Source: a bacterium
GTDB lineage: Bacteria > Bacillota_I > Bacilli_A > Acholeplasmatales > Anaeroplasmataceae
Direction: 5' to 3'
Assembly: GCA_044432865.1 (NCBI GenBank)
Contig: JAWXUF010000001.1
Span: 2,786-66,785, forward strand
DNA length: 64,000 nt
In this document: in pieces, positions 39,822 to 50,580 of the stretch
How positions within the stretch are numbered: position 1 is the first letter of the stretch
Layout: each line of letters opens with the position of its first letter
The notes under the pieces: generated by a model
What the model was told of the DNA's origin: nothing
Seen by the model: the letters and a program-made list of their open reading frames with translations, nothing else
Databases searched by the model: none
Program-made: the position numbers and the translations under genes

Positions 39822-40715
39822 TCATAAATTTATTTTTTTTAAATAGTTTATTGCATCTAAGTAACTAAACTCCTTTTTTTTGACAAATTTAGCAGTTACA
39901 ATATCTTTAATATAGTTTATTCTTCTAAATTTTTCTCTAGAGTTAACATCACTTAAGTGAACTTCAATTATAGGTTTTTTAAATATATCTAAAGCATCTT
40001 TAATAGCAATTGATGTATGAGTATATGCTGCTGGATTAATTATCAAATAATCAAATTTATCCATTTGGTGAATTTTCGATACAATTTCACCTTCAATATT
40101 ACTTTGAAAAAACTCATATTCAAATACATCATAATTTTTTATCATTGTATTTATATCATCAAGTGTTTTACTACCATAGTGTTGCGCTTCACGTTTTCCA
40201 AGCATATTCATATTTGGACCATTGATAACTAAAACTTTTTTCTTTGGTCTATTTATAATCTCACTTATTTTTTCAATACTACTATCAATATCATGATTAT
40301 CTATTTTATAATCACAATACTTTTCATATAAAGTTTTTCTTTCAGAATATACTTTTTCAAGTGTACGCTTTTCAAGTAAAGGTCTTGTAGATAGATCAAT
40401 TCTTGTTTTTATAATTTCAAGTTCACTATACAAATAAATAATTATTCCATAAAAATTTTCAATATTTTTCTTATTTAATATTGAACCCCCACCCAGAGAA
40501 ACAACAGTATGAGAAATCCCTTTTATTTCTTCAATGATTTCAGTTTCAATTTTTCTAAAATCTTTTTCATTTTTAAGCAAATCACTTATTGAAGAGTTAG
40601 TTTTATTTTTTATTAATTCGTCAGTATCAACAAAATCAAATTTTAAATTGTCAGCTAACTCCTTACCCAAAGTAGTTTTACCAACTCCAGGCATACCAAT
40701 TAAATAAATATTCAT
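39822..40715 (-). CDS. Bifunctional shikimate kinase / type II 3-dehydroquinate dehydratase fusion
   Basis: The N-terminus has IYLIGMPGVGKTTLGKELA ... DTD (AroK). The C-terminus has VLVINGPNMNMLGKRE ... FFQSN.EGE ... INPAAYTHTSIAI.DAL ... EVHLS (AroQ). Confidence 0.85.
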   Translation of the reverse strand: MNIYLIGMPGVGKTTLGKELADNLKFDFVDTDELIKNKTNSSISDLLKNEKDFRKIETEIIEEIKGISHTVVSLGGGSILNKKNIENFYGIIIYLYSELEIIKTRIDLSTRPLLEKRTLEKVYSERKTLYEKYCDYKIDNHDIDSSIEKISEIINRPKKKVLVINGPNMNMLGKREAQHYGSKTLDDINTMIKNYDVFEYEFFQSNIEGEIVSKIHQMDKFDYLIINPAAYTHTSIAIKDALDIFKKPIIEVHLSDVNSREKFRRINYIKDIVTAKFVKKKEFSYLDAINYLKKINL

Positions 40716-46046: not shown

Positions 46047-46075
46047 ATTATAACATTTTATAGCTTTTATGTAAA
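46047..46075 (-). promoter_or_regulatory. Sigma-A-type promoter of mutS-mutL(-miaA) with extended -10
   Basis: On the minus strand: TTTACA (46070..46075), a 17-nt spacer ending in TGt, TATAAT (46047..46052). It lies immediately after the upstream terminator. Confidence 0.6.
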
Positions 46076-46111
46076 ATAAAAATACAGGTATATATACTAT
46101 ATACCTGTATT
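46072..46111 (-). terminator. Strong terminator after the giant repeat-protein gene
   Basis: 14-bp perfect stem aatacaggtatata/tatatacctgtatt (46081..46094 and 46098..46111) with a 3-nt loop, followed on the minus strand by TTTTATTTT. Confidence 0.8.
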
Positions 46112-46119
46112 ATATTTAA

Positions 46120-49100
46120 TTATTTATTGATAATTGGATTTAAGAAATCGAAAATAAAATCGTATACTTTTCCGAACGCATCAATTACAGCATCACCATT
46201 ACCAAAACTTATAGAATTAATAATATCGACGTGTGCTTTACCAATTCCTGTTGTAGCATCAAATGCCCAGAAATCAAATAATATTCTATCAGTAGTTGAA
46301 GCATAAACTCCACCTAACATTATGAATAAATAGATAGCAATTAATGAAATTAAGAATAATAAAATTTTGATTACTTTAAATACTTTATTTCTATTATATT
46401 GCTTAACTAATTTAGAATCTTTCATCGTTCTATAGCTTAAAATTTTAGCTTTTTCTTTTTCTAATTTAGCTATTTGTTTTTTAGCTTTTAATTGTTTTTT
46501 AGTTAATAATGATTCATCAATATCATTATTTGACATTGACATCGGAGTATCAACAAAGTCTAGTGTATCGACAATATTAGTTTCTTCAACCATTTGTCCT
46601 GCACTTTCATCAATATCATTTTTATCTAAATCAGATGTAACTCCATTAGTTTCAAATAAATTATTTAAATGTTCTGCATCAAATGAAGAAGCAACTGGAG
46701 TTTGTTCTTGTTGAACTGGTTCTGGTTTAGAAGTTAATCCACTGATTAATTCTTCCATATTTTGGAATCTAACTTTTCTTTCATCATCTTCAAAAGGTTG
46801 ATTACTTACAGTTTGAACACTAGTTGTACTAACAGTTGAAGCAATATCGTTCATAGCTTCATCTTCAACTAATTTTTCTCTTTGTTTATCTAATTCAGCT
46901 TGTTGTTGTTCTAGAGCATTTAATTGTTCTAAATAATCTTGATGTTGTTGAACCATTTGTTCTTGTAATTGTTTATTTAATTCCTCTTTTTGTTCAGGAG
47001 TTAATCCAATTTCATTTACTTCAACATCTTTATTTTGTAAATATTCTTGATCTAATAATCTACGTTGTTCAGCAATTAAAGCTTGTTGTTGTGCAATTAA
47101 ATCTTGTTGTGATGATACTATATCATCTTGTGGTTGCGTTGTTTCCATAGGTGCAGATACAGCTATAACTTCGTTATAAGTTTCTTCTTCATATGGAGCA
47201 TCGTAAATTGATTGAGAATAGTTATTTAATTCAGCATATGACACGAATGACACTTCATCAACTCTATCATGGCTAATAGAAATAGTTTCAACTGGACCAA
47301 GATTTTGATAAGGATCATCATAATGAGAGATATCAACTGTTTCTTCAACTCTTTGAGTTATTTGTTGAGATTGTACATTTCCATATTGATCGTATTGAGG
47401 TTGTGCATACATAACTTCTTCTGAATAAACAGTTTGTTCTTGATACATCGGTTGTTGTTGATATACAACTTCTTCTGAGTAAACAGTTTGTTCTTGATAC
47501 ATCGGTTGTTGTTGATATACAATTTCCTCTGAGTATACTTGTTGTTGATATGGATCTTCTTGGTACACAATGTTTTCTGAGTACATTGGTGTTTCTTGAT
47601 ATACAATATTTTCTGAATAAATAGGTGTTTCTTGATATACAATGTTTTCTGAATAAATAGGTGTTTCTTGATATACAATGTTTTCTGAATACATTGGTGC
47701 TTCTTGGTACACAATGTTTTCTGAATACATTGGCGTTTCTTGATATACAATATTTTCTGAATACATTGGTGTTTCTTGATATACAATGTTTTCTGAATAT
47801 ACTGGTGTTTCTTGATATACTACTTCGTCAGAATATGCTGGAGATTCTTGATATACAATATTCTCTGAATATATTGGAGATTCTTGATATGTTTCTTCAG
47901 CATATACTGGTTCTTCACTTACAATATTCTCACTATAAGTAATTTCCTCTGAATATACAGGCTCTTCATTTTCAGTGTAAGAAGACTCTTCTACATAAGT
48001 AGGTTCCTCATTTACAATATTTTCACTGTATGTGATTTCTTCTGAATAAATTGGTTCTTCATTTACAATATTTTCGCTATAAGAAGTACCTTCAGATTGT
48101 AAAGGTGCTTCACGATATATTATATTTTCAGAATAAGATGGCTCTTCATTAACGATATTTTCACTATATGTAACTTCATCAGCGTATTGACCATTTGATA
48201 CAATATCTTCTGAATACATTGGAGCTTCTTCAGAAATTATAGTTTCACTATATGCAACGGCTTGATCATCATAATTACCATCTTCATCAACATACTCTTC
48301 AATAGTTTCTTCAACAACTGTTTCTTGATAAACTTCCGAATCATTTTGTTGTGCAATAGCAGCTTCTCTAGCCATTTCAGCTTCTTTTAATAATAATTCA
48401 GCTTCTTTTTGCGCTAATTCAGCTTCTCTTGCTAATTCATTTTCTCTTTGTGCTAATTCAGCTTCTTTTTGTGCTAATTCAGCTTCTCTTGCTAATTCTG
48501 CTTCTCTTGCAGCTAATTCAGCTTCCTTAGTTGCATATTCTAATTCTTTATGCATTTCAACTTCTTTTTGTGCTAGTTCAGCTTCTTTCGCAGCTAATTC
48601 AGCTTCTTTTTCAATTTCAGCTTCTCTTGCAGCCAGTTCAGCATCACGAGCAGCATATTCAGCTTCTCTTCTAGCTTCTTCTAACTCAGCTTCTTTCGCA
48701 GCTAATTCAGCAGCTTTTGCAGCCAATTCAGCTTCTTTTGCCGCTAAAGCTTCTTCTAAATCAGCTTCTTTTTGCGCTAATTCTGCATCTCTTGCAGCAG
48801 CAGCTTCAAGTAATTCAGCATCTTTTTGTGCTAACTCTGCTTCTTTTTCTGCAGTTGTTTGTGCTAATTCAGCTTCTTTTTCTGCAGTTGTTTGTGCTAA
48901 TTCAGCTTCTTTCTCTGCAAGTTCCGCTTCTTTTTCTGCAGCAGTTTGCGCTAATTCAGCTTCTTTTTCAGCTAATTCAGCTTCTTTTTGTGCTAATTCA
49001 GCTTCTTTTTCTGAATTATCTTCACCTTCAATGTATTCTTCAACCACAGTCTCAACAACTACAGTTTCAGTTTGTTCTTCACTACCATTGTCATTTGACA

Positions 49101-50478
49101 TTGTTTGAGTTTCTTCAGTATCATCTAAAACTGTTTGAACTGCGTCATCATTATTACCAATAGATCTTGATTGAACTCCTTGTTGGTTTTCTTCATTGAT
49201 TTCAGCTGGTGTATCTTCACCTTCAATATATTCTTCAACTACAGTCTCAACAACTACTGTTTCTTGTTGTTCTTGTGTTTGGTTAGCTAACATCTCTTTG
49301 ATTCTAGCATTAATAATATCTTCTAAACGGTCATCATCAGTTTCACCATTTTGTTTAGCATTTAATAATTCAATTTGTTTTTCTAATTCTTTAACACGTT
49401 CAGCATATGGATCAACAGTTGGTTCATCACTTTCAACTTCTGTTTGAGATTTTAATTGATCTAATCTTTCTCTTTCAGCTTCTTGTTCTGAACGTAATTT
49501 ATCGATTTCACCTTTTAAATCATCAATATCTGATTTAGAAACAATTTCACCATCTTCATCAAATTCATAAATATATCTTGAATCAATGTCTCTAATGTAT
49601 TCTGGTTTCATTTCGAAGTGTTCTTCATCTAACACAATTAGATTAACTTTCGGTAATGTTTTTAAAGAAGTTTGACCATTTTCAACAGCTTTTAAAATAA
49701 AATCAATTACAGCATCTTTTCTTAATTCAGTAGATGCTTTAATATCATTATCTTTAGCAAAACGTTGTAATGAAACAACTTTCATATCTTTTATTTTTTC
49801 ATTTACAGATTCATCAAATTTTTCTTCTTCTTGAAGACGTTGAATGATTACTTCTAATAATTGAGCACGATTTAATCTTTTAGGAACATTAATATCATAT
49901 TTAGATGCAACATCTCTTAATTCTGCAACAGTAGAACTTTTAAACATTACACGAGAAAAATCATCGCCAGGAATAACATCTATAGATCCATCAAAATCAT
50001 ATAAACATCCATTTAATAAAGTATTGAATTCAGAGAATTGAGTGTGTTCATCAGATAATTTTAATAATTTAGATAAAGTATCTTCTGTTACTTTTAATTT
50101 CTCAGCATTTACTAAAACTAAAATCCATAAGCTAATTTTATATTGTTCAGCACATGCATTCTCATGAAATCTTGTGTCACCAGTGCTTGCTAATGTATTG
50201 AATAATTTGTTTAATTGATAATCAGAATATTCAGTGTACCAATTTAAACGGTGTAATAACTCAGTTGTAATTGGTAATTCTTTTGCAATTTTAACAAATT
50301 CATTCAGAACCATTTTTAAAGCTCTAGTTCTAATGATACGTGGTAATCCACTATTTGTTTCATTTAATAACTCAACAACTTTACTAACATCTTTCGATGA
50401 TAATTTCTTAGCAAGTTCGTAAATATCTTCCGTATTCCCTTTAAATAATATTGTCATATCTTGTAAATTTATTTCCAT
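46120..50478 (-). CDS. Giant acidic repeat protein, C-terminally membrane-anchored (N-terminal HeH/SAP-like motifs, coiled coils, Tyr/Glu-rich tandem repeats)
   Basis: It is a 4.36-kb uninterrupted ORF. A GAGGTG RBS 6 nt before the ATG at 50478 (the track start is the GTG inside the RBS). It has its own sigma-A-like promoter and strong terminator. It has a single TM helix (46300..46383) 59 aa from the C-terminus. I recognise no enzymatic motif. Confidence 0.85.
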   Translation of the reverse strand: MEINLQDMTILFKGNTEDIYELAKKLSSKDVSKVVELLNETNSGLPRIIRTRALKMVLNEFVKIAKELPITTELLHRLNWYTEYSDYQLNKLFNTLASTGDTRFHENACAEQYKISLWILVLVNAEKLKVTEDTLSKLLKLSDEHTQFSEFNTLLNGCLYDFDGSIDVIPGDDFSRVMFKSSTVAELRDVASKYDINVPKRLNRAQLLEVIIQRLQEEEKFDESVNEKIKDMKVVSLQRFAKDNDIKASTELRKDAVIDFILKAVENGQTSLKTLPKVNLIVLDEEHFEMKPEYIRDIDSRYIYEFDEDGEIVSKSDIDDLKGEIDKLRSEQEAERERLDQLKSQTEVESDEPTVDPYAERVKELEKQIELLNAKQNGETDDDRLEDIINARIKEMLANQTQEQQETVVVETVVEEYIEGEDTPAEINEENQQGVQSRSIGNNDDAVQTVLDDTEETQTMSNDNGSEEQTETVVVETVVEEYIEGEDNSEKEAELAQKEAELAEKEAELAQTAAEKEAELAEKEAELAQTTAEKEAELAQTTAEKEAELAQKDAELLEAAAARDAELAQKEADLEEALAAKEAELAAKAAELAAKEAELEEARREAEYAARDAELAAREAEIEKEAELAAKEAELAQKEVEMHKELEYATKEAELAAREAELAREAELAQKEAELAQRENELAREAELAQKEAELLLKEAEMAREAAIAQQNDSEVYQETVVEETIEEYVDEDGNYDDQAVAYSETIISEEAPMYSEDIVSNGQYADEVTYSENIVNEEPSYSENIIYREAPLQSEGTSYSENIVNEEPIYSEEITYSENIVNEEPTYVEESSYTENEEPVYSEEITYSENIVSEEPVYAEETYQESPIYSENIVYQESPAYSDEVVYQETPVYSENIVYQETPMYSENIVYQETPMYSENIVYQEAPMYSENIVYQETPIYSENIVYQETPIYSENIVYQETPMYSENIVYQEDPYQQQVYSEEIVYQQQPMYQEQTVYSEEVVYQQQPMYQEQTVYSEEVMYAQPQYDQYGNVQSQQITQRVEETVDISHYDDPYQNLGPVETISISHDRVDEVSFVSYAELNNYSQSIYDAPYEEETYNEVIAVSAPMETTQPQDDIVSSQQDLIAQQQALIAEQRRLLDQEYLQNKDVEVNEIGLTPEQKEELNKQLQEQMVQQHQDYLEQLNALEQQQAELDKQREKLVEDEAMNDIASTVSTTSVQTVSNQPFEDDERKVRFQNMEELISGLTSKPEPVQQEQTPVASSFDAEHLNNLFETNGVTSDLDKNDIDESAGQMVEETNIVDTLDFVDTPMSMSNNDIDESLLTKKQLKAKKQIAKLEKEKAKILSYRTMKDSKLVKQYNRNKVFKVIKILLFLISLIAIYLFIMLGGVYASTTDRILFDFWAFDATTGIGKAHVDIINSISFGNGDAVIDAFGKVYDFIFDFLNPIINK
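47413..47535 (-). repeat. 54-bp tandem repeat, about 2.3 copies (18-aa unit YSEEVVYQQQPMYQEQTV)
   Basis: 47413..47466 and 47467..47520 are nearly identical (1 mismatch by eye), and a partial third copy follows. Confidence 0.8.
47549..47874 (-). repeat. Nine near-identical in-frame 36-bp tandem repeats (12-aa unit YSENIVYQETPM) inside the giant gene
   Basis: Read directly from the sequence: units of cttgatatacaatgttttctgaatacattggtgttt recur with a 36-nt period and only a few substitutions. They lie within a broader degenerate Y/E-rich repeat zone at 47385..48258. Confidence 0.85.
48350..49012 (-). repeat. Low-complexity Ala/Glu coiled-coil coding region with embedded 33-bp tandem repeats
   Basis: It encodes about 220 aa of (K/R)EAELA(Q/A/E) units. 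48841..48873 and 48874..48906 are identical 33-mers (AEKEAELAQTT). Confidence 0.8.
49020..49264 (-). repeat. Pair of 50-bp direct repeats 195 bp apart (both encode ETVVVETVVEEYIEGED)
   Basis: 49020..49069 and 49215..49264 differ at about 4 positions. Confidence 0.8.
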
Positions 50479-50551
50479 ATTAGGCACCTCGACTTATATT
50501 TTTTCAGATTAAATTCAAAAGTTCTCACTCTTCTCATTTACACTTATCTCT

Positions 50552-50580
50552 ATATTACAACATTTCTTTTATTTTTTCAA
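50552..50580 (-). promoter_or_regulatory. Sigma-A-type promoter of the giant repeat-protein gene
   Basis: On the minus strand: TTGAAA (50575..50580), a 17-nt spacer, TAATAT (50552..50557). An A/T-tract lies just upstream, and the start codon is about 70 nt downstream. Confidence 0.6.

Follow-up and report, generated by a model that had tools for sequence, protein, structure and literature searches.

Helix-extended loop-helix motifs of the HeH, SAP and LEM type contact DNA through their loops and second helices, and an origin of the LEM/HeH motif from bacterial Rho_N-like motifs is a long-standing proposal. Such motifs can be combined with a membrane anchor, as in LAP2-beta, where a LEM-like and a LEM motif are followed by a C-terminal membrane helix, and in emerin, which consists of a LEM motif and a tail anchor. 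Another architecture is found in ZipA and RodZ, where a single membrane helix and a charged flexible linker carry a folded cytoplasmic head. Here, we describe protein X, encoded on the minus strand (46120..50478) of a 64,000-nucleotide stretch of an Anaeroplasmataceae genome (assembly GCA_044432865.1, contig JAWXUF010000001.1; C1:2786-66785 in our numbering, hereafter the window), which is 1.25 Mb in size, has a GC content of 26% and is 90.7% complete in 72 contigs. Protein X combines two Rho_N/HeH-type motifs in an N-terminal head with a long acidic linker and one C-terminal membrane helix. New here is an uncharacterised protein family whose layout resembles that of eukaryotic LAP2 and emerin. 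Its favoured role, to which we assign a probability of about 0.4 on the basis of its sequence features, would be that of a tether between DNA or the nucleoid and the membrane.

Compared with LAP2-beta, emerin, Heh1, Heh2 and MAN1, protein X shows a similar layout, in which one or two HeH-type motifs at the N-terminus are followed by a long linker of low complexity, an anchor and a short tail, but orthology is not demonstrable and the protein of the window scores below the HeH and LEM models. Furthermore, its motifs are packed in a 270-amino acid (aa) head, its linker is strongly acidic, and neither a nuclear envelope nor a lamina nor BAF exists. With the N-terminal helical subdomain of Rho (PF07498), protein X shares a profile match above the cut-off, a hit to 3l0o and the helix-extended loop-helix pattern, whereas the OB-fold RNA-binding domain and the RecA-type ATPase of Rho are lacking (no such Pfam matches) and the motif is duplicated, embedded in a larger head and membrane-anchored. 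Assignment as a Rho orthologue was rejected, as protein X scores 13 bits with the NCBIfam Rho equivalogs, whose cut-offs are 315 and 509. A gene for Rho is apparently missing as well, Rho_RNA_bind (PF07497) having no match in this 90.7% complete genome.

The same motif type is present in the same genome on a fusion of ribosomal protein L20 with an unknown domain (NCBIfam PRK14537; Rho_N 35.5 bits), which in a six-frame search with PF07498 is the only other Rho_N motif of the genome; two members of the protein X family match PRK14537, up to 3e-5. The fusion protein is encoded outside the window on contig C46 (L076:1465-2322, minus strand) and possesses a long Lys/Ala/Pro-rich tail; in contrast to protein X, it has a single motif, located at the C-terminus after this Lys-rich tail, and no membrane helix. 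The phage endonuclease VII family phrog_3281, where the motif type occurs on a DNA enzyme, shares solely the approximately 50-residue motif with protein X, which has no nuclease domain. ZipA and RodZ likewise have one helix, a charged linker and a cytoplasmic head, but their N-terminal or central anchor confers the opposite polarity, and there is neither relatedness of the head folds nor sequence similarity.

Rho_N/HeH motifs within a conserved head

The N-terminal 296 aa of protein X match Pfam Rho_N (PF07498) in two stretches with E=6.9e-11 and 42.4 bits, above the curated gathering cut-off of 24.9 bits, at the positions where an original prediction, made from the translated DNA, had placed two tandem HeH/SAP/Rho_N-like motifs. 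In a six-frame search of the genome, motif 1 (49825..49941, minus strand, residues ~183-221, numbered here and below from an upstream GTG) and motif 2 (49681..49791, minus strand, residues ~233-269) score 24.2 and 24.3 bits, so that each motif singly stays just below and both together exceed the cut-off; motif 2 is the best-scoring stretch in the Pfam search of the 296 aa. Throughout the family, Rho_N is matched in 61 of 78 members (best E 4.2e-16) and the HeH model PF12949 in 6 of 78 (best E 1.6e-05), with the window's own protein not matching PF12949 at E<=0.01. Among PDB sequences, the family profile has its best match in Rho of Thermotoga maritima (3l0o, residues 11-50, E=0.006), to the N-terminus of which motif 2 aligns, and the PHROG endonuclease VII family phrog_3281 matches through its C-terminal 50 profile positions in two stretches (9.6e-10). 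These Rho_N, HeH, Rho and endonuclease VII matches bear out the profile similarity expected in the original prediction. Judged by profile comparison, the two motifs are genuine Rho_N/HeH-type motifs, far beyond chance.

The sub-alignments of motif 1 and motif 2 match each other with an hhalign probability of 96.7% (E 4e-10), so that they represent an internal duplication. In the AlphaFold2 model, helices 187-196 and 207-220 of motif 1 and helices 237-246 and 257-269 of motif 2 are arranged around an extended loop, a pattern modelled within the head at a pLDDT (predicted local distance difference test) above 90 for both motifs. Residues K196, P202, R204 and K/R207 of motif 1 are conserved in at least 90% and K257 of motif 2 in 98%, and the conserved basic positions K196, R204, K/R207, R242 and K257 are situated in the loops and second helices. 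There is possibly a third, degenerate HeH-like unit in the head (50287..50391, minus strand, residues ~33-67); the evidence for it is weak and consists of an hhalign match of motif 1 to residues 20-70 (probability 73%, E 3e-5, 35 columns) and of helices 34-43 and 50-66, which border a conserved P49-R50 loop. Pfam and NCBIfam scans of full-length protein X deliver nothing useful and miss the motifs, as the head is masked by the linker composition. DUF5855 was rejected as an assignment, as it scores 19.3 bits, below the threshold of 28 bits, and does not turn up in the genome search.

The conserved N-terminal head (49672..50478, minus strand, residues 4 to ~272) is one compact globular unit. AlphaFold2 modelling of residues 1-296 with an alignment of 124 sequences results in a single compact unit (mean pLDDT 95.9, predicted template modelling score (pTM) 0.91), in which residues 1-170 form a short N-terminal beta element and six helices packed on both helix-loop-helix units. 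Modelled alone as a 104-aa fragment, the HeH pair reaches a pLDDT of 80.7 and a pTM of 0.58, a lower confidence as expected if the pair depends on the rest of the head. According to the models, the HeH motifs are thus parts of one ~270-aa head and not independent modules. The predicted location of the motifs at the cytoplasmic end of the protein is retained as far as a cytoplasmic head is concerned, but not with respect to free-standing motifs.

A Foldseek search of the head against the PDB gives no significant match, the best being unrelated helical proteins at E 0.11, and a phmmer search against PDB sequences finds nothing significant; from the lack of a PDB match it follows that the whole head is without a solved structural relative. 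The 104-aa HeH fragment equally retrieves insignificant Foldseek matches only from the PDB and BFVD, where motifs of ~40 residues score rarely. EF-hand pairs lead its ranking, in which a Marseillevirus 'Rho termination factor' is fifth at an insignificant E of 1.5. Owing to this low power for ~40-residue motifs, Foldseek neither supports nor contradicts the Rho_N profile evidence. The EF-hand resemblance was rejected, as the loops do not show the Ca-binding D-x-D-x-D-G...E pattern.

The coding sequence of protein X (46120..50478, minus strand) comprises 1452 aa from the ATG at 50478, and the open frame extends further to a GTG at 50487 (46120..50487, 1455 aa), from which residues are counted here. 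The ATG is likely the true start, since a GAGGTG ribosome-binding site is located 6 nt upstream and homologues begin at the equivalent methionine, which, as M4 in the GTG-based count, is conserved in 94% of them. Counting from the ATG reproduces the residue numbering of the original prediction.

Linker, tail anchor and distribution of the family

Between head and membrane helix extends an acidic, repeat-rich and variable linker of ~1,080 aa (46384..49671, minus strand; 25% D+E, 7% K+R). Tandem Repeats Finder detects in it a 21-bp array encoding KEAELAQ-type heptads (48360-49011, minus strand) and Tyr/Glu-rich arrays of 36 bp and 54 bp (47413-47890, minus strand). The arrays are in frame and near-perfect (36 bp x 9.3 with 87% matches, 54 bp x 2.3 with 95%), which suggests a recent expansion and possibly variation of the length from strain to strain. 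Within the family, linkers are acidic, typically with 20-30% D+E, and are conserved neither in length nor in sequence. A spacer of more than 1,000 acidic residues, as had been noticed initially, therefore characterizes this copy but not the family, whose median protein length is ~550 aa in genomic loci; with 1,452 aa, the window copy is an outlier. In relatives P0005 and P0006 and at locus L008, arrays of Flg_new (Listeria-Bacteroides repeat) or Ig-like Big_3 domains take the place of the linker; although such domains are normally extracellular, the protein lacks a signal peptide and would be expected in the cytoplasm.

The single transmembrane helix, predicted correctly from the outset at 46300..46383 (minus strand, residues ~1369-1396 of 1455), has its Kyte-Doolittle peak of 2.82 at residues 1372-1390 and is preceded by ten K/R in 30 residues. 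Exactly one strongly hydrophobic helix, always C-terminal, is found in 119 of 154 relatives, none in 29, mostly short fragments, and several in 6. Across the 119 members, the 15 residues preceding the helix carry a net charge of +3, compared with about -0.5 beyond it, and a hydrophobic N-terminal segment is absent from all family members, with a maximal 19-residue hydropathy of 1.67 in the first 58 residues. The charge distribution around the helix and the missing signal peptide place the head in the cytoplasm, in agreement with the N-terminus being inside as originally assumed. Taken together, these sequence features indicate that protein X is a tail-anchored membrane protein whose head is cytoplasmic. 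The C-terminal tail (46123..46299, minus strand) is predicted to be outside the cytoplasm and is poorly conserved; with ~59 aa, it is longer than in classical tail-anchored cases, and tails range from 0 to ~56 aa in the family, with 37 of the 119 members having 10 residues or fewer.

An exhaustive phmmer search with the 296-aa head identifies 246 cluster representatives (clusters defined at 50% identity) at E<=0.001, of which 175 remain at E<=1e-10 and 35 at E<=1e-30. Almost all matches span residues ~4-270 and start from the N-terminus of the matched protein, and the layout of head, linker and one C-terminal helix recurs in at least 175 clusters. The head occurs in 97 genomes out of 399 sampled from the class, with 7/11 in the window's own family, 29/30 (Acholeplasmataceae by NCBI label) and 7/7 in two families that share its order, and 22/23, 22/22 and 3/3 in three other families; in the remainder of the class it is sporadic or absent. 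Carriers include Haploplasma modicum ATCC 29102, Peloplasma aerotolerans and metagenome-assembled genomes labelled Anaeroplasmataceae, Mariniplasma and Erysipelotrichales, and two genomes of 0.7 Mb retain the gene. The family is covered by no NCBIfam model, no model of the Pfam library searched and no PDB entry; one relative bears the more recent Pfam accession PF27945, which lies outside that library, and full-text searching of a literature library found no paper on the family. It is thus a conserved, uncharacterised family which is lineage-specific to Acholeplasmatales-type small-genome Bacilli.

Variants of the architecture exist. In relative P0003 (1050 aa), the whole ~300-aa head is present twice in tandem before linker and anchor, while in P0022 and P0107 the head match begins near residue 300-350. 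Paralogues are encoded elsewhere in a few genomes; on an Acholeplasmataceae chromosome, two ~350-aa head paralogues flank a 1,620-aa open reading frame (L093, G186:C1:270000-286000) away from the mutS locus.

Possible roles of protein X

An HeH head joined to a membrane anchor is supported by the analysis, and the tether idea that had been attached to it is plausible as judged from sequence features. Protein X would act as a housekeeping tail-anchored protein at the inner face of the cell membrane, with the head holding nucleic acid through the conserved Lys/Arg of the HeH loops and second helices; K196, R204, K/R207, R242 and K257 are the candidate contacts. The nucleic acid would most likely be chromosomal DNA, so that the nucleoid, or replicating or repaired DNA, could be tethered to the membrane, with their spacing determined by the linker. 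The profile matches nearest to the motifs, Rho, the L20 fusion and endonuclease VII, all act on nucleic acids.

The genes around protein X bear on this role. On the minus strand of the window, the order is rny, ymdB, spoVS, rubrerythrin, miaB, ymcA, cotE, X, mutS, mutL, miaA, aroK-aroQ. In 68 of 74 related loci, X is located directly upstream of mutS on the same strand, with a gap of 43 bp or less in 66 of the 68 (median ~25 bp), and the X-mutS order extends to more distant families (L079-L086, L089). In most relatives, X is accordingly spaced as if co-transcribed with mutS-mutL-miaA. In this genome, however, a terminator-like hairpin with a 14-bp stem and a subsequent T-run follows the stop codon of X (46081..46111, minus strand; terminator scan and sequence), and mutS is preceded by a near-consensus promoter (46047..46075, minus strand; TTTACA, 17 nt, TG-TATAAT, 11/12 plus TG extension). 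Thus, X and mutS are separate transcription units here and, in view of the short gap in relatives, the operon was split in this lineage. The X of this genome is hence an atypical copy of 1,452 aa: its repeat linker is greatly enlarged, and with a terminator after X and a separate promoter for mutS, the gene has become free-standing.

Several observations weigh against DNA tethering. The head is net acidic (family median -4, window copy -7), and the HeH pair itself is just weakly basic with a family median of +2 and slightly acidic with -1 in the window copy; the strongly acidic linker likewise speaks against a simple DNA-binding protein. Proteins, too, can be ligands of HeH-type motifs, as in the LEM-BAF interaction, and Foldseek does not recover a significant Rho or HeH structure with either the head or the 104-aa fragment, a search in which short motifs score rarely. 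Big_3 and Flg_new domains, which are usually extracellular, occur in the linkers of a few members. Coupling to mismatch repair is not obligatory, since X is kept without adjacent mutS in the three loci of one family (L087, L088, L092; mutS follows X in 0/3) and has its own terminator here; in L088 and L092, X still adjoins cotE or miaB. Finally, synteny within one class may reflect inheritance only.

Chromosome positioning and segregation in small, often wall-less Bacilli such as Acholeplasma and its relatives are poorly understood, and protein X, being near-universal, kept in 0.7-Mb genomes and equipped with a nucleic-acid-type motif and an anchor, is a testable candidate for a genome- or RNA-to-membrane link. 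A membrane-anchored bacterial HeH example would also bear on the Rho_N origin of the eukaryotic HeH/LEM motif. By analogy, protein X might even be a bacterial counterpart of LAP2, emerin and Heh which anchors chromosomal DNA to the membrane and works with MutS-MutL on newly replicated DNA, although we regard this specific version as improbable. Were it correct, genome-membrane attachment by HeH motif and membrane anchor would exist, or would have arisen independently, in bacteria.

As a less favoured possibility, which nonetheless deserves consideration, the head could be a protein-docking platform, where the HeH pair together with the N-terminal subdomain recruits a soluble partner to the membrane, for example MutS/MutL, the sliding clamp or a division protein. 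Not only does the LEM motif bind BAF, but peripheral-subunit-binding domains, too, bind enzymes. The net acidic head fits such a function, as do the embedding of the motifs in a larger conserved globular unit, whose other 170 residues are without known fold, and the tight spacing with mutS-mutL in 66 of 68 relatives. On the other hand, the best-conserved residues of the motifs are Lys/Arg, placed where HeH motifs that contact nucleic acids typically have them, the closest profile matches are to the three nucleic-acid-acting proteins named above, and X persists where mutS is not adjacent. Should the head dock proteins instead, protein X would still be an unannotated conserved component beside the mismatch-repair operon.

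Attachment of RNA rather than DNA is an unlikely alternative. Protein X would then be a membrane scaffold which holds RNA or ribonucleoprotein alongside RNase Y, itself membrane-bound, and the RicA (YmcA) complex. The conserved gene order rny-ymdB-miaB-ymcA-X suggests such a link, and the motif family carries the name of Rho, an RNA-binding terminator; moreover, the sole other Rho_N motif of the genome is located on the ribosomal protein L20 fusion, whose model two X members match, and Rho was not found in the 90.7% complete genome. However, the gap between X and its upstream gene, with a median of ~95 bp to ymcA, is larger than the ~25 bp to mutS, and the block from rny to mutL is an old Firmicute synteny, so that proximity says little. 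Furthermore, the RNA contacts of Rho derive mainly from the OB-fold after Rho_N, a domain that Pfam and NCBIfam scans do not detect in X.

Display of the N-terminal part on the cell surface (N-out), as in a surface or adhesin-like protein, is very improbable despite the Big_3, Flg_new or internalin-like repeats in the linker of some members, since an N-terminal signal or hydrophobic segment is lacking in all of them (maximal hydropathy 1.67, as above), the positive charge precedes and does not follow the membrane helix, many tails are of 0-10 aa and Rho_N/HeH motifs are, to our knowledge, cytoplasmic in every known case.

Sporulation genes and neighbouring genes

The genome of the window encodes Spo0A (C1:11777-12088), SpoIVA (C1:30919-31602), CotE and SpoVS, and SpoVAC/EB were not found in its 90.7% complete sequence; judged by its gene content, the organism may sporulate. 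It looks like a very small genome of the same order as the Acholeplasmataceae that keeps core sporulation genes. The original prediction had considered a role of protein X during sporulation. As a sporulation protein of this organism and its closest spore-forming relatives, X would be a forespore-membrane or coat-assembly tether acting with CotE, for which we see hardly any chance. Consistent with it are the presence of Spo0A and SpoIVA, the Tyr-rich repeats of this linker, which are reminiscent of coat proteins, and the adjacency to cotE, which accompanies X here, in 6 of 74 loci and in two more distant ones (L088, L089), with cotE several genes away in L087. However, cotE is located upstream of mutS in Bacillus as well (B. 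subtilis map), and as this cotE-mutS junction is ancestral in Firmicutes, the adjacency of cotE and X is inherited synteny. The sole promoter-like site upstream of X in a sigma-70-type scan is a weak 9/12 match (50580..50552), and X matches no sporulation family of Pfam or NCBIfam. A sporulation-specific role of the family was rejected, as X is near-universal in Acholeplasmataceae and in families whose loci are devoid of cotE and spoVS; a secondary function of this kind in the present lineage is conceivable.

Downstream of miaA, shikimate kinase (SKI) and type II dehydroquinase are, by Pfam, fused in one 297-aa protein (39822-40715, minus strand), and four related loci likewise have this fusion after miaA.

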